Part shown: one piece after another, positions 13,313 to 36,140 of the stretch
Numbering within the stretch: position 1 is the stretch's first letter
How the letters are laid out: each line of letters opens with the position of its first letter
Assembly: GCA_043800705.1 (NCBI GenBank)
Contig: JAZDMS010000029.1
Span: 1-54,810, forward strand
Source: Candidatus Altiarchaeota archaeon
GTDB taxonomy: Archaea > Altiarchaeota > Altiarchaeia > IMC4 > SCGC-AAA252-I15
Direction: 5' to 3'
DNA length: 54,810 nucleotides
Notes under the pieces: generated by a model
Told to the model about the DNA's origin: nothing
Seen by the model: the letters and a program-made list of their open reading frames with translations, nothing else
Databases searched by the model: none
Translations under genes and position numbers: made by a program

Positions 13313-13810
13313 CTATGAACCCTTTTTCAGCCTTTTTTTAGTGTATTCAACAAGGCCTCCTTCTTCGATGAGTTTTAGGAGGAATCCGGGTAGGGCCTTG
13401 AACGCGTATTCCTTCCCGGTCCGCAGGTTCTTCACGGTCCCAGCCTTGTAGTCGACTTCGACCTCGTCGCCGTCCCTGGCCTCGATCTTGCATTCGACGA
13501 GGGGTAGGCCGATGTTTATGCTGTTTCTGTAGAATATCCTGGCGAAGCTCCCTGCGATGACGCACTTTATGCCGCAGCCCATGAGGGCGCGGGGGGCGTG
13601 CTCCCTTGAGCTGCCGCATCCGAAGTTGCCGGCGGCGACGATGATGTCGCCTTCCCTGACCTGCCCGGCGAACTCCGGCCGCACCTTCTCGAACGCGTGC
13701 GCGCCGAGCTCCTTGGGGTCGCCTGTGACCAGGTATTCCGCGGGGATTACCTGGTCGGTGTCGACGTTGGAGCCGAACACCCAGACCCTCCCCTTAATCT
13801 TGCTTTCCAT
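13313..13810 (-). CDS. leuD: 3-isopropylmalate dehydratase small subunit
   Basis: NVDTDQVIPA, NFGCGSSREHA, SFARIFYRNSINIGLP. Confidence 0.93.
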   Translation of the reverse strand: MESKIKGRVWVFGSNVDTDQVIPAEYLVTGDPKELGAHAFEKVRPEFAGQVREGDIIVAAGNFGCGSSREHAPRALMGCGIKCVIAGSFARIFYRNSINIGLPLVECKIEARDGDEVEVDYKAGTVKNLRTGKEYAFKALPGFLLKLIEEGGLVEYTKKRLKKGS

Positions 13811-13921
13811 TGTGTTCCCCTATTTTGAAAAGTGAGACTTTTGCCTGAGCGAAATCCTCTTCATTTGCCTTGGACTGTTTGGACAGCCCCTTTAGAGACG
13901 CTAGTTTTTCTTTATTTGGAT

Positions 13922-14479
13922 TCATGTCATTTCACCAACTCTGAGGCATTCATCCGATTTCTTTACCGTCACGCCCATGTTCTCCATGTCCTTCAGGTTC
14001 ACACTCTGCGTCTCCTCCGTCGCGGACGCGGTCGCATCAGACAGCACCACGACGTCGTAGTCGAGGCATACGGCATCGACTGCCGTTGCCCTTATGCAGT
14101 TTGGCGTCTGGACGCCCGCGATGACGACGGAGTCCACCTTCAGCCTGCGCAGGAGCATGTCGAGGTCGGTCTGGAAGAATCCCGAGAACCTCCTCTTCTT
14201 CACAATGTATTCCCCGTCCAGGGGATAGAGTTCCTCGATCACTTCTTCCCCTTCGGTGCCTTCGACCAGGAACGGCCCGTCCTCGAACTTCTTGAGCCTG
14301 AACCTTTCGACGTCTGAGCCGTCGGCGCGGTGGGCCCTTACGATGTGGACGACGGGCTTCCCCGCCTTGCGGCAGGCATTCAGGACCTCCCCGATTTTAG
14401 GCACTACATCCTTCGCGAAGGGCAGCATCTCATGGACGACGTCGTTCTGCATGTCGATTATGATGAGGGCGTCTTTCAT
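13922..14479 (-). CDS. Isochorismatase-like cysteine hydrolase
   Basis: ALIIIDMQND, KRRFSGFFQTDL, GVQTPNCIRATA. Confidence 0.9.
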   Translation of the reverse strand: MKDALIIIDMQNDVVHEMLPFAKDVVPKIGEVLNACRKAGKPVVHIVRAHRADGSDVERFRLKKFEDGPFLVEGTEGEEVIEELYPLDGEYIVKKRRFSGFFQTDLDMLLRRLKVDSVVIAGVQTPNCIRATAVDAVCLDYDVVVLSDATASATEETQSVNLKDMENMGVTVKKSDECLRVGEMT

Positions 14480-14498
14480 CTTAGCCTGGTTCGGGGGT

Positions 14499-14903
14499 TC
14501 ATTTTTTCGCCTGTATCCCGTATCGCCTGAACATGTCGGCTCTGGCCCCGTCCAGTGCCGCGGGCTCCTGCAGGTATCGCCGGTAGGCGTTGCGCAGCTC
14601 AAGGCTTGCGGGCCCTTCCTCGAGGTTGCGCAGGGCCTCCAGGACCTGTACGTTCCAAACCCTGACATCACCCCCATCAGGGAGCCTCTGGTGCTCGAGC
14701 GCGAAGAGGACGGACAAGTCCTTTGCTCGCTGGCCTTTGAGCTCGTCATAGCTCTGGGAGACGGATTCCTGCATCCTCCTGGCGGCCTCCGCCCATGCCC
14801 CCTTGGCCATCAGTGTCTCGACGGTCTCTAGGAGTTCGACCTTTGGCTTATCCTGTGCGCCGGCCTGCGCCGGCCCCTGTGTGTTCCTTTTCCTTGCGTT
14901 CAT
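14499..14903 (-). CDS. Hypothetical protein
   Basis: Fills the gap between leuC and the hydrolase on the same strand; helical, plausible RBS. Confidence 0.55.
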   Translation of the reverse strand: MNARKRNTQGPAQAGAQDKPKVELLETVETLMAKGAWAEAARRMQESVSQSYDELKGQRAKDLSVLFALEHQRLPDGGDVRVWNVQVLEALRNLEEGPASLELRNAYRRYLQEPAALDGARADMFRRYGIQAKK

Positions 14904-14906
14904 GGT

Positions 14907-16163
14907 TCATCTCCTCTTCAATTGGTTCGGGTCCGTTATCTTCCCGGTTATCGCGGATGCCGCGACGACCGCGGGGTTCGCCAGATACACCCTGCTGCTC
15001 TTGTGGCCCATGCGGCCTATGAAGTTGCGGTTCGTCGTGGAGACGCAGACCTCCCCGTCGGCGAGGATGCCCATGTATCCCCCCAGGCATGCGCCGCACG
15101 TCGGACCCGATATGTAGGCTTTGGCCCTGCTGAATATGTCGTACAGGCCCTCCTTGATCATCTGGTCCATTATCGCATGCGAGGCGGGGACTATGATGAG
15201 CCTTACGCCGTCTTTGACCTCCCTGCCCTTGAGCATCTTCGCAGCGACGCGGAAGTCCTCTATGCGGCCGTTGGTGCAGGAGCCGATGTAAGCCTGGTCG
15301 ATCGCGACGCCGACCTCGGATGCCGGCTTCGCGTTCTCGGGAAGGAACGGCTCCGCGACGGTGCAGGGTATGTCCGTCGCATCGTATTCGAATCTCTCGG
15401 AGTATATGGCGTCCCTGTCGCTGAACACGGCCTTGTATCCGCCCCTTACGCGGCCTTTGAGGTAGTCGTCGACCTTCCGGTCCGGCGGGACGATGCCTGC
15501 CTTGGCTCCGGCCTCGATGGCCATGTTGGATATGGTTATCCTGTCCGCGAGCTGCAGCGACCTGATGGCGGAGCCGTACCATTCCATGCTCTTGTAAAGG
15601 GAGCCGTCGACTCCGAGCTCCCCTATCGCGTGTAGGATTATGTCCTTGCCCATGACGTATTTGCCGAGCCTGCCTTCGACCGTGAACTTCTGGGATTCGG
15701 GGACGCGGAACCAGAGCTTCCCGGACGCCATGGCGCAGGCGGCCTCGGTGCTGCCGATGCCGGTTGCGAACGCCCCGAGGGCGCCGTAGCTGCAGGTGTG
15801 GCTGTCTGCGCCGACTATGAGCCTGCCGGGGGCGACGTATCCCTGCTCTATCATGAGCTGGTGGCATACGCCGCTTCTGCCGACCTCGTAGTAGTTGGTG
15901 AGCCTGTGTTTCTTCGCGAACAGGCGCATCGCCTTCGCCTGCTCCGCTGACGCGACGTCCTTGTTGGGGACGTAGTGGTCGGGTATGAGGACGGATATCC
16001 CGTCTTTGGGCGGGGCTTCGAGCCTGTCGAAGACCCCGAACGCGGGAAGGCCTGTGACGTCGTTGACCATGACGTAGTCGACTTCGGCCTCGACGATCTG
16101 CCCTGGCTCGACCTCCTTGAGGCCAGACTTGGCTGCCAGTATCTTCTCGGAGATCGTAGCCAT
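14907..16163 (-). CDS. leuC: 3-isopropylmalate dehydratase large subunit (archaeal LeuC/HacA type)
   Basis: DHYVP, GADSHTC, IGSCTNGR, CGACLG, STTNRNFIGRMG. Confidence 0.92.
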   Translation of the reverse strand: MATISEKILAAKSGLKEVEPGQIVEAEVDYVMVNDVTGLPAFGVFDRLEAPPKDGISVLIPDHYVPNKDVASAEQAKAMRLFAKKHRLTNYYEVGRSGVCHQLMIEQGYVAPGRLIVGADSHTCSYGALGAFATGIGSTEAACAMASGKLWFRVPESQKFTVEGRLGKYVMGKDIILHAIGELGVDGSLYKSMEWYGSAIRSLQLADRITISNMAIEAGAKAGIVPPDRKVDDYLKGRVRGGYKAVFSDRDAIYSERFEYDATDIPCTVAEPFLPENAKPASEVGVAIDQAYIGSCTNGRIEDFRVAAKMLKGREVKDGVRLIIVPASHAIMDQMIKEGLYDIFSRAKAYISGPTCGACLGGYMGILADGEVCVSTTNRNFIGRMGHKSSRVYLANPAVVAASAITGKITDPNQLKRR

Positions 16164-16217
16164 AATGGAATACATACGTCATTGGTGTTTTAATATATTG
16201 CAATATCAGGTTCTGCC

Positions 16218-16343
16218 ATGTGCGGCAGCTTCGGGGGAGGCTTGGCCTCCGGGAGGCGTTCGCTCAGGCGGGACGGGTCCCTTACGGAATCCGAGGCGGA
16301 GGAGATAATCAAGTCACGGATGGGGAAGGCTGCCGCAGCTTAA
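16218..16343 (+). CDS. Possible 41-aa small protein
   Basis: MCGSFGGGLASGRRSLRRDGSLTESEAEEIIKSRMGKAAAA*, downstream of an AT-rich box divergent from leuC. Confidence 0.3.
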   Translation: MCGSFGGGLASGRRSLRRDGSLTESEAEEIIKSRMGKAAAA

Positions 16344-16358
16344 GCGCCGAATGGGTGA

Positions 16359-17213
16359 TCACAGTTCCCCGATGACCCGTATGCCTATGCTGACGTCGAG
16401 TCCGAGCTTTCTCTCCAGGCCGTCGCTTACCCTTTTCACGAGGGTTATCACGTCGTCGGCCTTGGCTCCCCCCACGTTGACGACGTAGTTGGGCTGCTTC
16501 GCCCACAGCGCAGCGCCGCCAATCCTGAGCCCCGCGAGGCCGCATCTTTCGATGAGCAGCGCGGTGGAGTCCCCCCCGACGTTCTCGAACATGCGGCATG
16601 CCTTTTTTCCGACGGGCAGCGAGTTGGCGCGCTGGGCCGTTTGGGAGTCCAGGGCCTGCCGTATGCCAGCAGACGGTTGGAGGCCGGTGAGGTCGAATTT
16701 GACGCTGAGTATCGTCCCTCCCCAGTACCCCCGCTTGTAGGAGAAGCCGACATCCTTTTGGGGTATCTCGACCACGATGCCTTCCGAGTCGACAGCCATT
16801 ATGGAGTGGATGAACTGCCCGATGGAGGTGCCCTTGTAGCTTGCGTTGGTGTATGCAGCCCCACCGATCGTGCCGGGTATCCCGTAGAGCTTCTCCATCC
16901 CGCCAAGCCAGCGCTCCGCCAGCATGTCGATGAAACGGGCCAGCTGGACCCCGGCCTCGGCTTCGGCGATCTGCTTCCTGAAGTCGACGAACCCCATCTC
17001 AGAGGTCACTATGACGCATCCGCGGAATCCCTTGTCGCTGAAGAGGACCGCGGACCCGGAGCCGACGACGACGTAGTCCAGGCCGCTTGCATTGCAGAAG
17101 CCTATCGCCTCCACCAGCTCCCCCACGTCTTTGGGCATCATCAGGGCGTCTGCGTCGCCGCCTATGCCCAGGCTCGAGTGGTTGCTGAGCGGTTTGTTGG
17201 TTCTTATCCTCAT
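16359..17213 (-). CDS. MurB-like FAD-binding protein (UDP-N-acetylenolpyruvoylglucosamine reductase fold), degenerate motifs
   Basis: GIGGDA, GSGSAVLFSDKG, GIPGTIGGAAYTNA, LIERCGLAGLRIGGA, NYVVNVGGAKADDV match MurB architecture. Confidence 0.8.
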   Translation of the reverse strand: MRIRTNKPLSNHSSLGIGGDADALMMPKDVGELVEAIGFCNASGLDYVVVGSGSAVLFSDKGFRGCVIVTSEMGFVDFRKQIAEAEAGVQLARFIDMLAERWLGGMEKLYGIPGTIGGAAYTNASYKGTSIGQFIHSIMAVDSEGIVVEIPQKDVGFSYKRGYWGGTILSVKFDLTGLQPSAGIRQALDSQTAQRANSLPVGKKACRMFENVGGDSTALLIERCGLAGLRIGGAALWAKQPNYVVNVGGAKADDVITLVKRVSDGLERKLGLDVSIGIRVIGEL

Positions 17214-17236: not shown

Positions 17237-18721
17237 CTATGCCGCGGTCTGCCGCATGATGATGGCGTTTATTCCGTTTATCATGGCGTCGACGGAGGCC
17301 AATACTATGTCGGTGCCGGCGCCTTCGGCTGTGTAGAGCTTCCCCTTGCTTTTCAGGGTGACGAGTATCCGCACTACGGCGTCGGCTCCGCCGGAGACGG
17401 CGTCGACGTGGTATTCCTTCAGCTCGAAGGGGACGTCCTTCGTCGCCGCCCTTATGGCGCGTATCGCCGCATCCACGGGCCCGTCCCCTTCGCCGGTTTC
17501 TGTGACCTTCCGCCCGTTTATCTCGAGCTTCACCGTCGCGGAGGGGACGATCTTGTTCCCTGCGGTTGCGACGAGCTCAAGGAGCCTTATCGGCTTCTCG
17601 CGCTTGAGCCCCATCGCGCTATGGGCGAGGGTGTCCAGGTCTACGGAGGTCACGTGCTTGCCCTTGTCCCCCATCTCCTTGACCTTGTCGAACACCTCCC
17701 GCATCTGCCCGTCGGACATCTTGAATCCCGCGTCTTCTAGCATCTTCCTGACGCTCTTGAAGCCGACGTGCTTGCCGAGGACGAACCTCCTTTTGGCGCC
17801 GACTATCTCCGGCTTGATCGGCTCGTACGTGCTCGGCTTCTTCAGTATCCCGTCGACGTGTATGCCCGCCTCGTGGGTGAAGGCGTTCTCCCCGACTATG
17901 GGCTTGTTCGGCGGCACGTTTATGCCGGTGAGCCTCTCCACCAGGTGGCTTATCCGGTTGAGCCCCTCTATCCGTATCCTGAACTTGTGCCCCGTGGTCA
18001 GCCTCAGCGCCACAGCCACCTCCTCGAGTGCCGTGTTTCCCGCCCGCTCGCCGAGGCCGTTGACGGTGACGTTGACGCACCTTGCGCCGTGCTTCACCGC
18101 AGTCAGCGTGTTGGCGGTCCCCATGCCGAAGTCGTCGTGGCAGTGGACTCCCACCGGCAACTTCGCCCGGGCGGCGACCTTCTCGAAGAGGACCGCGGTC
18201 CGCTCGGGGGTGAGGATGCCGACGGTGTCTGCGACGGTGAACCTGTCGGCCTTCGCGGCATATGCCGCATCCATGACCTTAAGGAGGTAGTCAGGGTCGC
18301 TCCTGGAGCCGTCCTCGCAGCAGAGGTCTACCCTGAGCCCGTGGTCTTTGCAGTATTCGGTCATATCCGTGACCTCCCGCAGGACCTTCTCCCGCGTGCT
18401 CTTCAGCTTCCACTTTATGTGCAGGTCCGACGTGGGCGCGACGAGGAATATGCAGTCCACGTCGCATGAGAGGGCGAGGTCTATGTCCGCCTTCATGATC
18501 CTCGCGAAGCTGGCGACCTCCGCATCCAGTCCGGCGTTCGCCACGGCCTTGATGCTCGCGCGCTCCCCCTCGCTGGTGCATGCGCTGCCGGCCTCTATGA
18601 TGTCCACGCCGAGCCTGTCCAGGGCGCCTGCTATCTTGAGCTTGTCTTCCGTGGAAAGGGAAACTCCGGGCGTCTGTTCGCCGTCCCTGAGTGTCGTGTC
18701 CAAAAACAGTATTTGAGCCAT
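17237..18721 (-). CDS. (R)-citramalate synthase / 2-isopropylmalate synthase (CimA/LeuA family)
   Basis: DTTLRDGEQTPG, HCHDDFG, GLGERAGN, HEAGIHVDG, C-terminal GDGPVDA regulatory domain. Confidence 0.92.
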   Translation of the reverse strand: MAQILFLDTTLRDGEQTPGVSLSTEDKLKIAGALDRLGVDIIEAGSACTSEGERASIKAVANAGLDAEVASFARIMKADIDLALSCDVDCIFLVAPTSDLHIKWKLKSTREKVLREVTDMTEYCKDHGLRVDLCCEDGSRSDPDYLLKVMDAAYAAKADRFTVADTVGILTPERTAVLFEKVAARAKLPVGVHCHDDFGMGTANTLTAVKHGARCVNVTVNGLGERAGNTALEEVAVALRLTTGHKFRIRIEGLNRISHLVERLTGINVPPNKPIVGENAFTHEAGIHVDGILKKPSTYEPIKPEIVGAKRRFVLGKHVGFKSVRKMLEDAGFKMSDGQMREVFDKVKEMGDKGKHVTSVDLDTLAHSAMGLKREKPIRLLELVATAGNKIVPSATVKLEINGRKVTETGEGDGPVDAAIRAIRAATKDVPFELKEYHVDAVSGGADAVVRILVTLKSKGKLYTAEGAGTDIVLASVDAMINGINAIIMRQTAA

Positions 18722-18744
18722 TTTATGTGGTGTATATGTGATGG

Positions 18745-18866
18745 ATTGCATCAAAAAAAAGGCAGCAACCGGGCCGGGTCCCATAATCCGCCCTAGAGAT
18801 GGTGTGTGGAGCCTAGGCTCCGATTATGAGGCCGATCATGGCCGAATGATAGGACGGGGCTTTCAT
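18745..18866 (-). promoter_or_regulatory. Candidate leader-peptide attenuator (uORF 18813-18866, alternative stems, U8 tract)
   Basis: uORF MKAPSYHSAMIGLIIGA*. GGAGCCTAGGCTCC palindrome over the stop, GC-rich stem, then T8 (A8 at 18753-18760 on +). TTTTTAA box ~27 nt upstream of the uORF ATG. Confidence 0.6.
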
Positions 18867-18979
18867 TTTCGGAAAAATATAGGCGTTTCCCGTTAAAAAG
18901 GCTGCCCGGTTCCTGAGGACCGGGGGAAAGTATCGGTGTCGTGCGCCAGCTTTTACCTCCGGAAACGCAATATGTCTTG

Positions 18980-19861
18980 ATGGATCCGGCTGCCGGCGTC
19001 TACGCCACGGTCATCAACGGGATGTCCACATACTTTGCCAAAGCAGATGCAAGGCAGGCGGTGGAGTCCTTGAGGATGAATCTCCCGATCCTGGACGGGG
19101 CAGGCGTGAAATACGAGCTGAATGGGGGGCTATTGACGGTCACATCGGCTGAAACGCAAAGCAGGGCCGCATTCTACGAATTCATCCTGGCTCATGGTAG
19201 AACATTCGAGGGCAGGTACGGGGTGACCGAGCTCTGGAAGCCGCTGAAGCTGGTGATAGTCAAGGCGATCTTCCCCCTCAGGGACTTGGTCAGGGAATAC
19301 GGGATGGAGATCCCGATCGCCAGGTACGGCCTCGAGTACACCAGCCGCGCTACGCTCTTCGGCTTCGACCTAGAAGGCAGGATGGCAAAGAACGAGTGGA
19401 CGAAGGCGGAAGTCCTTGTGACCAATCACCGGATGCTCCTGCCCCCAGCCGAAGACATCCGCCTGCACCGCCTCGCCACCATCGGACGGGAGATCTACAT
19501 GGGCGACGAGGAGAGCGTCAACAAATACGTGCGCGTAGTCGACTGCATGAGCGCCGACAGGCTGTCTTCCTACTCGCTCCTGTTCAGGGGGCCGAAGGAC
19601 ACCATCGTCGACTTCCTCAACACGCTGAGGATCGCAAGGACCGAATCCAGGAGGATCGGGCTGAACGAGACCAGGGTGCTGCTTGGGCTGTACTACCATA
19701 CGTCCTTGAGGGATCTGCCGGAGAAATGCAACCTGCAGAGCGGGCAGCTGTCGGAAGCCCTGCGCCGCCTGCACAGGCAGAAGTACATCGAGGAAATCGG
19801 TTCGCTCACAAGCGATGGAATCAAGATGGTGGACGAACTGATCAACGTAAGCATGATTTGA
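18980..19861 (+). CDS. CheF-like archaeal protein (PH-like domain plus C-terminal wHTH)
   Basis: EVLVTNHRMLL...IRL..LATIGR and ETRVLLGLY...LRRLHRQKYIE...LTSDG resemble archaeal CheF. Start uncertain (GTG 18941 possible). Confidence 0.5.
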   Translation: MDPAAGVYATVINGMSTYFAKADARQAVESLRMNLPILDGAGVKYELNGGLLTVTSAETQSRAAFYEFILAHGRTFEGRYGVTELWKPLKLVIVKAIFPLRDLVREYGMEIPIARYGLEYTSRATLFGFDLEGRMAKNEWTKAEVLVTNHRMLLPPAEDIRLHRLATIGREIYMGDEESVNKYVRVVDCMSADRLSSYSLLFRGPKDTIVDFLNTLRIARTESRRIGLNETRVLLGLYYHTSLRDLPEKCNLQSGQLSEALRRLHRQKYIEEIGSLTSDGIKMVDELINVSMI

Positions 19862-31853: not shown

Positions 31854-33551
31854 ATGAAAGGAGCTGAAGCGATCATAAAATCCCTCCAGGCGGAGGGGGT
31901 AAAGCACCTGTTCGGGATACTCGGCGGCCAGATATTGGACGTCTACGACGAGTTCGCGAGGACCGACCCGAAGGACCTCAGGCACATACTCGTCAGGCAC
32001 GAGCAGGTCGCAGCCCACGCGGCAGAGGGGTACGCCAGGGCATCGGGCAAAGTCGGAGTCTGCATCGCAACCTCGGGCCCGGGGGCCACCAACCTCGTGA
32101 CCGGGATCGCCGACGCCTACATGGACTCGGTCCCCATTGTCGCGTTGACGGGGCAGGTGCCGACGTCCCTCATCGGCAACGACGCGTTCCAGGAGGCGGA
32201 CATCGTCGGGATAACGATGCCGATCACGAAGCACAACTTCCAGCTCACGAGGTGTGAGGACATACCGAGGACCTTCAAGGCGGCGTTCAAGATAGCCTCG
32301 ACTAGGCGGCCGGGGCCGGTCCTCATAGACCTGCCAAGGGACGTCCAGCAGGGGAGGATAGAGAAGTTCAGCTACCCAAAGGACGTCGACCTGCCGGGCT
32401 ACAAGACCGACGTCGGCGGAGGGCATCCGGTCCAGCTGAAGAAGGCGGCGCAGATGCTGCTGGCAGCCGAGCGCCCGGTCATAATTTCCGGCGGCGGAGT
32501 GATAACCTCCAACGCCAGCGTGGAGCTTCGCAGGGTCGCGGACTCCCTCATGATACCGGTGGCGACGACGCTGATGGGCAAAGGCGGCTACCCGGAGGGG
32601 ACGCCGCTGTCCCTTGGGATGGTGGGGATGCACGGACGCAAGACCGCGAACCTGTTGGTCACCGAATCCGACCTCCTTTTCGCCGTAGGATGCAGGTTCT
32701 CCGACAGGATAACAGGAGATATCAAGACGTTCGCCCCGCATGCGAAGATCGTCCACATAGACATCGACTCCGCCGAGATAGGGAAGAACGTCAGAGTCGA
32801 CCTGCCCATCGTCGGCGACGCCAAACTCGTCCTCAGGAACCTTCTTAAGATACTCGACGCCAAGAAGGCCAAGGGCGGGACGGCATGGCACGCCAAACTG
32901 GAGAAGTACAAGAAGGAGTTCGGCCCCTGCTGGGACCACGAATGCACCCCCATAAAGCAGCAGCGCGTCATGAAGGAACTCGACTCCCTCATAGACGACA
33001 GGACGATAGTCACCACGGAAGTAGGCCAGTGCCAGATGTGGGCGGCGCACTTCCTCAACATCAAGAACCCGAGGCAGTTCATCAGCTCAGGAGGCCTGGG
33101 GACGATGGGGTTCGGCTTCCCGGCGGCCATCGGCGCCAAGGTCGCGATGCCGGGGCACAAGGTCATCGACGTCGGCAGCGAAGGCAGCTTCTTGATGACA
33201 TGCCAGGACCTGGCCACATGCAAGGAGGAGGAGATACCAGTCACCGTCCTGCTTCTGAAGAACGGCTGGCTCGGCATGGTCAAACAGTGGCAGGAGCTCT
33301 TCTTTGACAAACGCCACAGCCACACCCGCCTAGGCGACACACCAGACTTCGTCAAGCTCGCAGACGCGTTCGGAGCCAAAGGCATCAGGATCGAGAGGCC
33401 CGGAGAGATAAGGGAGGGCCTGAAGACCGCGCTGGAAAGCGGAGAGACACATGTCCTTGACGTCCTCGTCGACCCCCGGGAACACGTCCTGCCGATGGTC
33501 CCCCCAAGGGGCCAGCTGGACAGAATGATAGAGAAGCACCACATAAAATAG
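31854..33551 (+). CDS. ilvB: Acetolactate synthase large subunit
   Basis: RHEQVAAHAAEGYAR, TSGPGATN, FQEAD, SSGGLGTMGFGFPAAIG, GMVKQWQ. Confidence 0.95.
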   Translation: MKGAEAIIKSLQAEGVKHLFGILGGQILDVYDEFARTDPKDLRHILVRHEQVAAHAAEGYARASGKVGVCIATSGPGATNLVTGIADAYMDSVPIVALTGQVPTSLIGNDAFQEADIVGITMPITKHNFQLTRCEDIPRTFKAAFKIASTRRPGPVLIDLPRDVQQGRIEKFSYPKDVDLPGYKTDVGGGHPVQLKKAAQMLLAAERPVIISGGGVITSNASVELRRVADSLMIPVATTLMGKGGYPEGTPLSLGMVGMHGRKTANLLVTESDLLFAVGCRFSDRITGDIKTFAPHAKIVHIDIDSAEIGKNVRVDLPIVGDAKLVLRNLLKILDAKKAKGGTAWHAKLEKYKKEFGPCWDHECTPIKQQRVMKELDSLIDDRTIVTTEVGQCQMWAAHFLNIKNPRQFISSGGLGTMGFGFPAAIGAKVAMPGHKVIDVGSEGSFLMTCQDLATCKEEEIPVTVLLLKNGWLGMVKQWQELFFDKRHSHTRLGDTPDFVKLADAFGAKGIRIERPGEIREGLKTALESGETHVLDVLVDPREHVLPMVPPRGQLDRMIEKHHIK

Positions 33552-33602: not shown

Positions 33603-36140
33603 ATGCCCAATGGCGGGAATGAAATCATCAACCTCAGACAGATTCCTCTAACCCAGGCAGGGCAGCTTGTGGAAGCGGTCGGCCGCATACAGCTTCGAGA
33701 CACTTTTGACGGCGTGTTCGGAAAGATGCCCGCTAGCGGTGAGCCTGAACGCGACCTGAATCGCAGGATCCGCGGCATTGTGGCGTACAGGTTCATAAAA
33801 GATAAGATCAACGTCCGGAGCGTGATGGAAAACTGGGATCATATAGTTGATCCCGGAAACCCGGAACACTCCGACGACCCGACTGAGGCATTCAGGCGGC
33901 ATGAAATGGCAGCCTATAGGACGAACCTGGAAAGCATGATAGACGCAAAGCTCACGACGAGGGAACGGTTCTTCCACATCCTCAAGTACAGGCTCAACGG
34001 CGCCGTAGGAGTCGAGGAGGAGGAGACCGTACGCAGGCTTAGGGTTGACGAGACGCATGATGTCCTCAAGCTGTTCGACAGAACCATCAGGGAGATAAAC
34101 GGCGAGGCCGCTCCGGAAAACGTCCTCGTCCTGGAGAATAGGCTAATCAACGAGGCCGGCAGGGAAAGACTGGTCGAATCCCTCCCGCAGCCGCACACGG
34201 TCGAATTCGGCAGATGCTGGTGGTACGAGTCGGACGTGCCCGTCCCCGACAAGAGCACGCGAATCGACTCGAAAAAACAAGAAGACGAGATAAAAGCCCT
34301 GGAAGCCTTGAGGGCTCGCATAAAAAAGGAGAATGATTTCATACGGGAGCACAAAGACCAGCTGATTTCGAGATACATCGATGGTTTGAGGAGGAAGCGC
34401 CCTCTGACACCCGCCGATGAGGAGATTTTAAGGGCCGCCAGGGGGAACGAGCTTGATGTCAAGAGGGACATGCTGACGAAGATAATCGAGCCAGGAGACA
34501 GGGGAATCATCGATGTCGCGATAGGCCTCGTGACTTCGAACAGGGTATTCGCGATGTGGGCTCTGGAATGTGCTAAAGACAACATAATCGAGGCGATCGA
34601 TAGGCAGATGAAAGAGGACTTTCTCATGGAGGCATTACTAGCCCCCCAGAAGGCCGACTACGCCGAGGCCGGCGCGCACGCTATGATACTGCTGTCCGGC
34701 AAAAAGCCGGAGAAACTCGCAAAGGAGGCTGTGGAGCACATGCTTGATGAGACTGCCGTTTTTTCGCCGTCGGCACTGTCGATAGACACCGCCACATTGT
34801 TCGCGGAGGCGGAACATATAGTAGGAACCGCAGTCGGGGACAAGGCGGGCCTCGGGCGCCACAAAGGCACCATATACAAGGAGCGCTCGCGCATGCTCCT
34901 TTATATAAAAGGTTTGGGCAATCTGCCCGTCGAATCTGGAGACCACGTAATATTGGACACCTTCACGCCGGAAAGCCCCCTTGCCATCCTGAACCCCACG
35001 GAAGAGACGAAGGAGCGCTATCTGGCCCTGAGGGAATCCGCAAGAAGGCTCGAGACCATCAAGAGGGAAGAAGTACCGCTGGACGCGGAAACGCCCCTGA
35101 AGGGCGGATCCACCCGTTCGGTGGTCGTTCAATTGGCGGGGAACATATCGCGCCAGGAAGAGGCTAGCGCCGTGATCGAGCTCGGTGCGAAAGGGTGCGG
35201 CCTCGTGAGAAGCGAGGAGTGTGTTCTCGCACTCAAGGCGATGCCCTCCGAGGACAGGCTTGAAAGGTCACTGTATGATAGATACAGGAGCATAGGAAGG
35301 AGGATGGAGGCTGATGCGATTCCGGGGAAAGAAGGCTTCCCAATCATTTTACGGGCATTGGACTTGGGGGGGGACAAGGTATCCGCCGCGACGGATGAGC
35401 TCTTTGAGGGCAGGAATCCGCTCCTATTCCGCGGCATGGACGTCCTGCTAGCCAACCCTAAAACCTTCAAGGCGAACATCAGGGCGTTCCTCAGGGCGAA
35501 GATGGATGCGCCATCGCTCGAATTCATGGTGCCGATGGCGACCAGCGTGGAGCAGTTGGACAGGATACAGCCGATCTGGGCGGAGGCGACTGCGGAGCTC
35601 GCGGCAAGAAAGACGAGGTTCGCCTTGACGTCCAAGATGGGAGCGATGATAGAGACCGTCAGCGCCTGCATGATGGTCAGGGAGTTCGTCGAGCACGGGG
35701 CATGGTTCCTGAGTGTGGGCACGAACGACCTCACATGCTCAAGGCTCAACCTGCTCCCAGAGCAGTTCAAGGCTGGATACCACGACCACGACCCCGCAGT
35801 CCTGAGTCTACTCAAGAGGGTAATTGACACCTGTCCCGAAGATTTCAGGTCTGTCGATCCCAGGACCGAGAAGATCATGCCCCTCGAGGTCTGCGGAGAC
35901 ATGGCAGGCACGGTAACGGGGGCGATACTGCTTGTCGGGATGGGCTACCGCAAACTCAGCATGGTGGCGAACGAGATCCCGCTTGTGAAGAGGATAATCA
36001 GGGACACCCCTATCGAGGTCATGGAGGGCATAGCTGCCGAAGCGCTGGAAAAAGACACGCCAGATGAGGTCCTAACCCTCGTTAGAAAAAAGATGCTAGA
36101 GGCCGGCATAGACGTCACGAGCGAAAAATACACCCTATAG
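33603..36140 (+). CDS. PTS enzyme I-like PEP-utilizing protein with long N-terminal extension
   Basis: GCGLVRSEE, ILRALDLGGDK, NPLLFRG, MVPMA, GAMIET, SVGTNDLT, VCGDMAG; putative phospho-His in GLGRHKGT. Confidence 0.8.
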   Translation: MPNGGNEIINLRQIPLTQAGQLVEAVGRIQLRDTFDGVFGKMPASGEPERDLNRRIRGIVAYRFIKDKINVRSVMENWDHIVDPGNPEHSDDPTEAFRRHEMAAYRTNLESMIDAKLTTRERFFHILKYRLNGAVGVEEEETVRRLRVDETHDVLKLFDRTIREINGEAAPENVLVLENRLINEAGRERLVESLPQPHTVEFGRCWWYESDVPVPDKSTRIDSKKQEDEIKALEALRARIKKENDFIREHKDQLISRYIDGLRRKRPLTPADEEILRAARGNELDVKRDMLTKIIEPGDRGIIDVAIGLVTSNRVFAMWALECAKDNIIEAIDRQMKEDFLMEALLAPQKADYAEAGAHAMILLSGKKPEKLAKEAVEHMLDETAVFSPSALSIDTATLFAEAEHIVGTAVGDKAGLGRHKGTIYKERSRMLLYIKGLGNLPVESGDHVILDTFTPESPLAILNPTEETKERYLALRESARRLETIKREEVPLDAETPLKGGSTRSVVVQLAGNISRQEEASAVIELGAKGCGLVRSEECVLALKAMPSEDRLERSLYDRYRSIGRRMEADAIPGKEGFPIILRALDLGGDKVSAATDELFEGRNPLLFRGMDVLLANPKTFKANIRAFLRAKMDAPSLEFMVPMATSVEQLDRIQPIWAEATAELAARKTRFALTSKMGAMIETVSACMMVREFVEHGAWFLSVGTNDLTCSRLNLLPEQFKAGYHDHDPAVLSLLKRVIDTCPEDFRSVDPRTEKIMPLEVCGDMAGTVTGAILLVGMGYRKLSMVANEIPLVKRIIRDTPIEVMEGIAAEALEKDTPDEVLTLVRKKMLEAGIDVTSEKYTL

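Follow-up and report, generated by a model that had tools for sequence, protein, structure and literature searches.

Candidate isoleucine, leucine, and cysteine leader peptides upstream of amino acid biosynthesis genes in Altiarchaeota

We analyzed a 54,810-nucleotide (nt) stretch of DNA from a Candidatus Altiarchaeota archaeon (contig JAZDMS010000029.1, here called the window) in which a gene of the isopropylmalate/citramalate synthase family is preceded by a short upstream open reading frame (uORF) rich in isoleucine (Ile) codons. The synthase gene encodes 494 amino acids (aa) on the minus strand (17237-18721; 602.7 bits to NF002085 and 499 bits to TIGR02090). It is followed on the same strand by a MurB-like gene (16359-17213), a gene for a LeuC/HacA-family large subunit (14907-16175), and a gene for a LeuD-family small subunit (13313-13810). 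Judging from strand and spacing, these downstream genes (13313-17213) are probably cotranscribed with the synthase gene. The MurB-like gene, of the UDP-N-acetylmuramate dehydrogenase family, thus separates synthase from leuC in this archaeon; it reaches at most 194.5 bits in NCBIfam, short of the cut-off of 259.

A preliminary description of the locus had proposed an attenuator of bacterial style, and the uORF, TTTTTAA box, stop-codon palindrome, and run of eight T residues (T8) on which it drew were all found on the minus strand where it had placed them. The TATA-like box TTTTTAA (18899-18893), a candidate promoter of the leader, has its 3' end 26 nt before the uORF start codon. The uORF itself (18866-18813; ATG at 18866-18864, TAG at 18815-18813) comprises 17 codons plus TAG and encodes MKAPSYHSAMIGLIIGA, a candidate isoleucine-sensing peptide. 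Its candidate regulatory Ile codons, ATC (18836-18834), ATA (18827-18825), and ATC (18824-18822), fall within the last seven sense codons before the stem of a hairpin formed by the palindrome GGAGCC/GGCTCC (18821-18808). In this hairpin the stem GGAGC/GCUCC closes the loop C-UAG, the 5' arm being made of the last two sense codons and the 3' arm of the bases past the stop. The G-poor linker ACACACCAUCUCUA follows, with 14 nt devoid of G before the first G cluster (18807-18785 in all, with GGAUU at 18789-18785). The T8 tract (18760-18753), a candidate archaeal oligo-U termination signal, ends 32 nt before the main ATG at 18721 and lies between the arms GGUUGC (18770-18765) and GCAAUCC (18749-18743), whose pairing (18743-18770) would loop it out. 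There is also an ATG at 18784, in frame with the synthase, which would add 21 residues, read T8 as phenylalanine codons, and give an open reading frame (ORF) of 515 aa. Such an N-terminal extension, or a second small ORF after the GGA motif, was rejected as not conserved, since it occurs only in the window and in locus L002, where it is out of frame.

Comparison of the upstream regions of 30 orthologs revealed the same arrangement, and a covariance model built from the last eight codons and the hairpin was used for genome searches. Within the window's own genome (G000 in our comparisons, where f1 and the like denote families and g8 and g9 genera), only the window site gave a good score, the second match having an E value of 8.4. 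At the level of the order, the element was present as a single copy in 14 of 49 genomes, all belonging to family f1 (13/20 plus G000), and in 0 of 28 genomes from the order's other families. The phylum-level search recovered it in 13 of 61 genomes at E ≤ 0.01, and 7 of 20 metagenome loci carried it, contributing 6 new sequences. Each match to the model lay directly upstream of the same ortholog of the isopropylmalate synthase/CimA family. With locus L131 dropped as identical to L010, 20 distinct Ile leaders remained. Among the f1 genomes without a match, the ortholog has its own promoter or another layout in four g8 genomes and one g9 genome, it is truncated by a contig end in G008, and no synthase ortholog was found in G010. 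Farther afield, 68 orthologs sharing no more than 56% identity were compared (from Methanothrix, Bathyarchaeia, Hadarchaeota, and other groups); in 3 of them a uORF carries three Ile among its final eight residues, with no resemblance to the window's leader in any of the 3.

The preliminary description had called for such an alignment and would have given up the idea had the uORF and its Ile codons proved unconserved; both are conserved, and the 20 distinct leaders share the Ile-rich uORF as well as a covarying stem. Their peptides are 12 to 26 residues long. Ile accounts for 90 of 435 residues (20.7%) compared with 5.9% in the genome's long ORFs, and for 82 of 160 (51%) at peptide positions -10 to -3. 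It occupies position -3 in 20/20 leaders and position -4 in 18/20, with glycine at -2 in 19/20. Leucine (Leu; 9.4% versus a background of 9.2%) and valine are not enriched, so that what was first called an Ile/Leu leader peptide keeps the first half of that name and is Ile specific. The Ile codons are divided among ATT (40), ATA (27), and ATC (23), and because they vary synonymously, it is the amino acid rather than the bases that is conserved, codon -3 excepted.

The stop codons also differ (TAG in 10 leaders, TGA in 7, TAA in 3), and in 20/20 the stop sits inside a loop of 3 to 6 nt on a stem of 4 to 8 bp. The stems change in sequence with pairing retained, as in GGAGC/GCUCC, GGGACU/AGUCCC, GAAGGC/GCCUUC, and GGGGGC/GCCUCC. 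Across the 20 leaders the stop hairpins have a mean z score of -4.3, with at most 3 of 500 shuffles reaching each observed energy; the window hairpin, at -9.0 kcal/mol, has z = -3.89, and 0 of 200 dinucleotide shuffles are as stable. Here and below, the structural tests are thermodynamic predictions, and the leader sequences compared are related to one another.

Past the hairpin, the linkers contain 35% A, 35% C, 28% T, and only 2% G, and the first GG falls at +25 to +29 from the stop in 17/20 leaders. A tract of at least five T residues is present in 17/20, where shuffled sequences average 3.0 and 0 of 2,000 shuffles reach the observed count, and at least six T residues occur in 15/20. Of the 17 leaders with a tract, 15 have its 3' end between -29 and -42 relative to the main ATG, and the corresponding U tract is predicted to be mostly unpaired in the nascent RNA. 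A role of the T tract as an internal TATA box was considered and rejected by eye on its geometry and sequence type. At the other end of the leader, inspection by eye found an A/T-rich TATA-type 8-mer ending 25 to 31 nt before the uORF ATG in 14/14 genome-derived leaders, a position that predicts a leaderless or very short-leadered uORF. In relatives without the uORF, a TATA-like box stands 20 to 40 nt before the main ATG instead (also by eye).

A crude genome-wide scan flagged two further uORFs, one rich in Leu and the other in cysteine (Cys), and the TATA-like box layout was seen upstream of both kinds of leader. The Leu leader of G000 is a 34-codon uORF (C33:2355-2459) ending in ...NPILRLYLFLRLRA, and it precedes a paralogous leuA-like synthase that is 44% identical to the window synthase. 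This paralog has a uORF ending in 5 to 8 Leu followed by R-L-R-A/E in 17 of the 21 genomes examined, with G008 dropped because only 100 nt of upstream sequence was available. Leu occupies positions -5 to -9 in 15 to 17 of the 17 Leu leaders, with all six of its codons in use. The stop codon forms base pairs within a bipartite hairpin of 13 bp, and 8 of the 13 pairs, including the stop codon's own partner, show compensatory double changes. A model of this leader matched 18 of 61 phylum genomes, namely 15/21 in f1 (including G000), 2/2 in f3, and 1/1 in f4, with no match in f5, f8, or f9. A tract of at least five T residues occurs in 1 of 17 Leu leaders versus 3.8 in shuffles, a deficit that is not itself significant. 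The Leu peptides also have a conserved N-terminal part, approximately [ED][ED]-x-x-S-[GW]-N-P, just before the Leu run (G000 C33:2355-2459; locus L230:156-260), in which the asparagine-proline codons are nearly invariant and mostly AAC CCT. Its conservation suggests that this stretch has a role of its own, either as nascent peptide or as RNA.

The Cys leader of G000 is a 22-codon uORF (C5:35207-35139) ending in ...CGCCFCQCRL, upstream of cysK (444 bits to TIGR01139, cut-off 351). Under a strict rule of at least three Cys in the last 12 residues, 12/18 orthologous loci have such a leader, and 16/18 do under the looser rule of a Cys in the last five residues; L239, where a wrong uORF had been selected, was excluded from the later Cys leader statistics. 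The C terminus reads C-Q-C-R-L/V, and the stop lies in the loop of a covarying hairpin. These leaders share the Ile layout, with a G-poor linker and GGAC/GGAU at about +25 to +30. T tracts of at least five are found in 12/15 against 1.6 in shuffles (0 of 2,000 reach the observed count), and their 3' ends lie at -28 to -42 from the ATG in 9/12. The motif [CA][AC]GGA[CU] (18785-18793 in the window) recurs at +25 to +30 from the stop in the Ile and Cys leaders, two unrelated families, and no pairing partner, start codon, or known signal was found to explain it. Bypassing between GGA...stop...GGA, as in T4 gene 60, was rejected: a sense codon separates GGA from the stop, and the Cys leaders have arginine codons at -2. 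A separate observation concerns the palindrome TTAACAATCGTTAA, which stands between the TATA-like box and the Cys leader ATG (G000 C5 around 35210-35225, locus L232; cysK loci L233-L250). Almost every cysK locus has it, including some that lack a Cys-rich uORF, and L247 has two copies. The palindrome looks like a transcription factor operator that would act besides the Cys leader.

The clade thus appears to have at least three such leaders, Ile before a cimA-like gene, Leu before a leuA-like gene, and Cys before cysK. Our strongest argument that these are regulatory leader peptides read by the ribosome is that the three mutually unrelated peptides are each enriched in the amino acid that the downstream gene helps to make, and we consider it very likely that the match between amino acid and pathway reflects a leader peptide of this kind. 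No such leader was found before ilvB (31854-33536 in the window), hisG, or two chorismate-binding genes of G000. Generic genome-wide scans for biased uORFs with stop hairpins were too noisy, and the 18 annotated downstream proteins from one of them included 0 amino acid biosynthesis enzymes.

The same match bears on the view that the uORF is an independent small gene, encoding a hydrophobic peptide from its own promoter, with the T tract as its terminator and the synthase promoted separately. The peptides do consist of a polar head and a hydrophobic tail, and the T tract does lie downstream of the uORF. Such a gene would leave unexplained why three unrelated peptides are each enriched in the downstream gene's product, and one would hardly expect its length to range from 12 to 26 residues with only a few C-terminal residues conserved (Ile and Cys peptides), or the element to occur at no other place in the genome. 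By eye, the interval from the T tract to the main ATG contains no TATA-like box of the kind seen at these loci, and a transcript starting about 26 nt past the T tract would begin within or after the Shine-Dalgarno (SD) sequence and remove it in SD-bearing loci. We therefore regard an independent small gene as very improbable.

It is also conceivable that the C-terminal sequence I-I-G-A-stop (C-Q-C-R-L-stop before cysK) acts as an arrest peptide: responding to the free amino acid, the nascent chain would stall its ribosome at the stop codon, as happens with TnaC or the fungal arginine attenuator peptide. In favor of this, conservation in the Ile and Cys peptides is highest over the final four or five residues, the stop lies within a structured region, and the Leu peptides have, in addition, their conserved N-terminal motif. 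However, the glycine-alanine, arginine-leucine, and arginine-alanine/glutamate codons form the 5' arm of the hairpin, so that RNA pairing explains their conservation, and residue -1 follows the stem (A, G, L, or T). The cognate residue, moreover, occurs three to seven times per peptide, also upstream of the motif, which is the typical pattern of a codon-run sensor. An arrest peptide is accordingly a poor candidate, and we think it improbable.

The window protein and its C33 paralog both pass NF002085. On LeuA models, the window protein scores 603/480/454 bits versus 634/514/486 for the paralog, whereas on TIGR02090 and the citramalate models it scores 499/259/263 versus 483/244/239 bits. No IlvA-type threonine dehydratase was found above the cut-off in the genome, the best match (72.5 bits) being cysK itself, and matches to solved structures in the PDB do not discriminate CimA from LeuA. 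Model scores, the lack of IlvA, and the Ile and Leu leaders favor the window gene as CimA and the C33 paralog as LeuA, which falls short of proof.

Given these features, we lean modestly toward ribosome-sensed, Ile-responsive attenuation of transcription at the U tract before the presumed citramalate synthase operon. From the conserved TATA-like box, transcription would start a few bases before the uORF ATG, and a ribosome would translate the uORF while RNA polymerase advances. The speed of this ribosome over the Ile codons directly 5' of the stop hairpin would report the supply of charged tRNA-Ile, with the stop-spanning hairpin as the ribosome-sensitive element, and would set the number of polymerases that pass the U tract, some 50 nt further on, and reach the gene. 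When Ile is ample, the ribosome would terminate and leave, and the uncoupled polymerase on G-poor naked RNA would stop at the oligo-U. When Ile is scarce, the ribosome would remain on the leader and more polymerases would read through, this being the direction of response that we infer. Termination would occur at the U tract itself, and a stalled ribosome would suppress it in a way for which an RNA switch may be unneeded.

In the Ile and Cys leaders the U tract, being enriched, predicted to be single stranded, and well positioned, resembles an archaeal terminator that has been built into a 5' leader. According to the available part of one report (PMC11616081), FttA binds U-rich RNA, the U-rich RNA in an FttA terminator occupies -30 to -36 relative to the 3' end of the RNA, and exclusion between FttA and an Spt5-coupled ribosome is an attractive hypothesis. 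The distance from tract to ATG in the Ile leaders (-29 to -42) fits this FttA terminator footprint (PMC11616081, as available in part). At this spacing of 29 to 42 nt, FttA would engage polymerase at the main start codon, ahead of any ribosome loading there.

A number of results weigh against attenuation at the U tract or against parts of it, and most of them concern the structural switch that a classical attenuator would have. The preliminary description had envisaged that the Leu-Ile-Ile codons pair with a downstream segment and thereby exclude a GGCGG...CTGCC stem directly before T8. The first of these pairings did not hold up: Ile codons pair with the GAUUAUGGG segment at z < -1.64 in 3 of 17 leaders only (mean z +0.16), and in the minimum-energy fold of the window, the partner of GAUUAUGGGAC is the uORF's 5' half instead of the Leu-Ile-Ile codons. 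The GGCGG...CTGCC stem is present in the window, but its stability does not exceed chance (z = -1.08, with 30 of 200 shuffles as stable), and a hairpin directly before the T tract is not general among the Ile leaders (mean z -0.40, p = 0.26). The fold of the whole window leader is similarly unremarkable (z = -1.06). Nor did other pairings emerge: the mean z value for the 3' arm together with the linker was +0.10 when tested against the segment preceding the T tract and -0.25 against the region following it, and between 5' arm and linker it was -0.06. The predicted pairing of the U tract stayed the same when a ribosome footprint was masked over the Ile codons or the stop (means of 0.15, 0.15, and 0.13 in Ile leaders and 0.08 to 0.09 in Cys leaders). 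The flanks of the T tract do pair better than shuffled flanks in 17 Ile leaders (mean z -1.47, t test p = 0.008, with p ≤ 0.05 in 8/17); in the window this pairing is weak (-5.6 kcal/mol, z = -1.03), and it was not seen in the Cys leaders (mean z -0.20). On these predictions, there appears to be no conserved, mutually exclusive antiterminator/terminator pairing among the Ile leaders. Of the bacterial-style attenuator originally proposed, comparison bears out an Ile-rich leader before an Ile pathway gene, and the structural switch is unsupported.

Other reservations of the same kind concern the sequences themselves. Codon -3 is an exception to the synonymous variation, being ATT in 19/20 leaders, and RNA structure may hold part of its conservation. 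As the sequences are related, the statistics overstate their independence. Finally, L003 and L127 (of the same genus) and L016 keep the uORF and the hairpin and have no tract of five or more T residues; together with the avoidance of T tracts by the Leu leaders, this indicates that termination at the U tract cannot by itself account for this group of leaders.

Those same leaders bring up translational control, the main rival, in which the same Ile-sensing peptide would act on translation of the main ORF, by opening of the ermC/cat type or by termination-reinitiation, and the U tract would have another role. Besides L003, L127, and L016, the Leu leaders lack a T tract, and most main genes carry an SD sequence. 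For L003 and L127, the main gene, 35 to 37 nt past the uORF stop, has the G cluster at +26 as its SD. Actinobacterial leuA leaders have likewise been proposed to pair Leu codons with the SD, in the accessible part of PMC1262725. On the other side, masking by a ribosome footprint left the predicted accessibility of SD and AUG without systematic change in both Ile and Leu leaders. The unpaired probability of the main start region (-14 to +4) in Ile leaders was 0.51 free, 0.50 with the ribosome stalled, and 0.49 with it at the stop, values that speak as little for attenuation as for its rival, and in Leu leaders it was 0.42 free versus 0.39 to 0.44. Sequestration of the ribosome-binding site that a stalled ribosome opens, as in ermC/cat, was set aside on these figures. 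Translational control also leaves the enrichment and fixed placement of the T tract in the Ile and Cys leaders unexplained. We consider it unlikely as the general explanation; the Leu leaders and the short Ile leaders may in fact work this way.

Returning to attenuation at the U tract, we tentatively put forward, as a possibility we would not yet favor, a version that needs no RNA switch, in which termination at a naked U tract depends on factors (FttA with Spt4/5) and is governed by the ribosome on the uORF. A ribosome held on hungry codons before the stop hairpin would stay coupled to polymerase or would keep FttA off. Once the ribosome has left, polymerase would cross G-free RNA and be removed with the U tract about 30 to 36 nt behind it. 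The G-less linker followed by GGA at +25 to +29 may then mark the place where polymerase sits or pauses when the ribosome ends the uORF.

Several other features were observed in the window. The upstream neighbor is a divergent ORF of 306 aa (18941-19861, plus strand) that matches no NCBIfam family; its start lies about 45 to 75 nt from the A/T-rich boxes of the leader, and two promoters may share this region. The window also encodes the KEOPS component Bud32, an archaeal marker, and the 16S rRNA of G000 ends in GGAUCACCUCC. Around 26541, 27298, and 28261 (minus strand) there is a common small hairpin, TGGAG and CTTCA with the loop GATGAA, together with a frame tail reading ...DARRRAGG, which suggests a repeated intergenic unit upstream of or between local genes. 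A search of the whole window with Rfam 15 gave 0 matches at gathering score, and no tRNA genes were found in it.

Among known systems, E. coli ilvL/ilvGMEDA and leuL/leuABCD are the classical ribosome-mediated attenuators of bacterial branched-chain operons. The Altiarchaeota leaders resemble them in having a short leader ORF with codons for the product, one leader per amino acid, and a U run before the first gene, and their stop hairpin, like the classical 1:2 hairpin, starts right past the regulatory codons and spans the stop. They differ in their archaeal host, their TATA-type promoter, and their probably leaderless uORF; no conserved antiterminator/terminator pair was found among them, and no general hairpin precedes the U tract, which fits hairpin-independent archaeal termination. 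As both the terminator hairpin and the alternative pairings failed, the element would be attenuator-like in function and not a member of the classical family. A further attenuator of classical type is the leader of Corynebacterium ilvBNC, according to the available parts of PMC11857589 and PMC10272879.

There is a closer likeness to the actinobacterial leaders with Cys runs (Mycobacterium cys operons) and to the LEU element before leuA, in which the runs lie close to the stop and no obvious terminator hairpin is present, as far as the accessible text of PMC1262725 goes. The same text suggests factor-dependent termination at the Cys leaders and, for leuA, a structure in which the leader takes part. 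It reports no conserved hairpin for the Cys leaders, whereas the Altiarchaeota leaders keep a hairpin, a G-poor linker, a GGA motif, and a U tract (PMC1262725). By this analogy, the Altiarchaeota layout seems even closer to these incomplete actinobacterial cases than to the bacterial ilv/leu leaders.

E. coli tnaC with Rho is a factor-dependent leader-peptide attenuator. The Altiarchaeota arrangement is similar in that unstructured, G-poor RNA and then a termination zone come after the leader ORF, and the position of the ribosome would gate the access of a factor. An analogy with tnaC and Rho has also been drawn for the actinobacterial leaders (PMC1262725, in its accessible part). Here the candidate factor would instead be FttA/aCPSF1 with Spt4/5, binding U-rich RNA (PMC11616081, in its available part). 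The signal, too, would be different, with tRNA charging in place of the free amino acid.

In bacteria, leader-peptide attenuation is textbook knowledge. Our literature search, whose coverage stopped short of subscription journals, found no archaeal leader-peptide attenuator described, and a methods paper states in general terms, in the portion available, that uORFs regulate in archaea too (PMC10219788). What we describe in one archaeal clade is a set of three amino-acid-specific candidate leaders that combine archaeal features (a TATA promoter, a probably leaderless uORF, and a hairpin-free oligo-U) with a shared geometry. If the proposal is true, archaea would use the translating ribosome as a sensor of tRNA charging, and the leaders would offer a natural handle on the crosstalk of translation and termination (FttA/Spt5) in archaea, which is so far a hypothesis in the available text of PMC11616081. 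They would also provide a regulatory signal that separates the hard-to-tell CimA and LeuA paralogs in archaeal genomes. Should the version without an RNA switch be the correct one, archaeal transcription-translation coupling would have its first natural regulatory use, and leader-peptide attenuation would gain a third design besides the hairpin-switch and Rho-dependent types.

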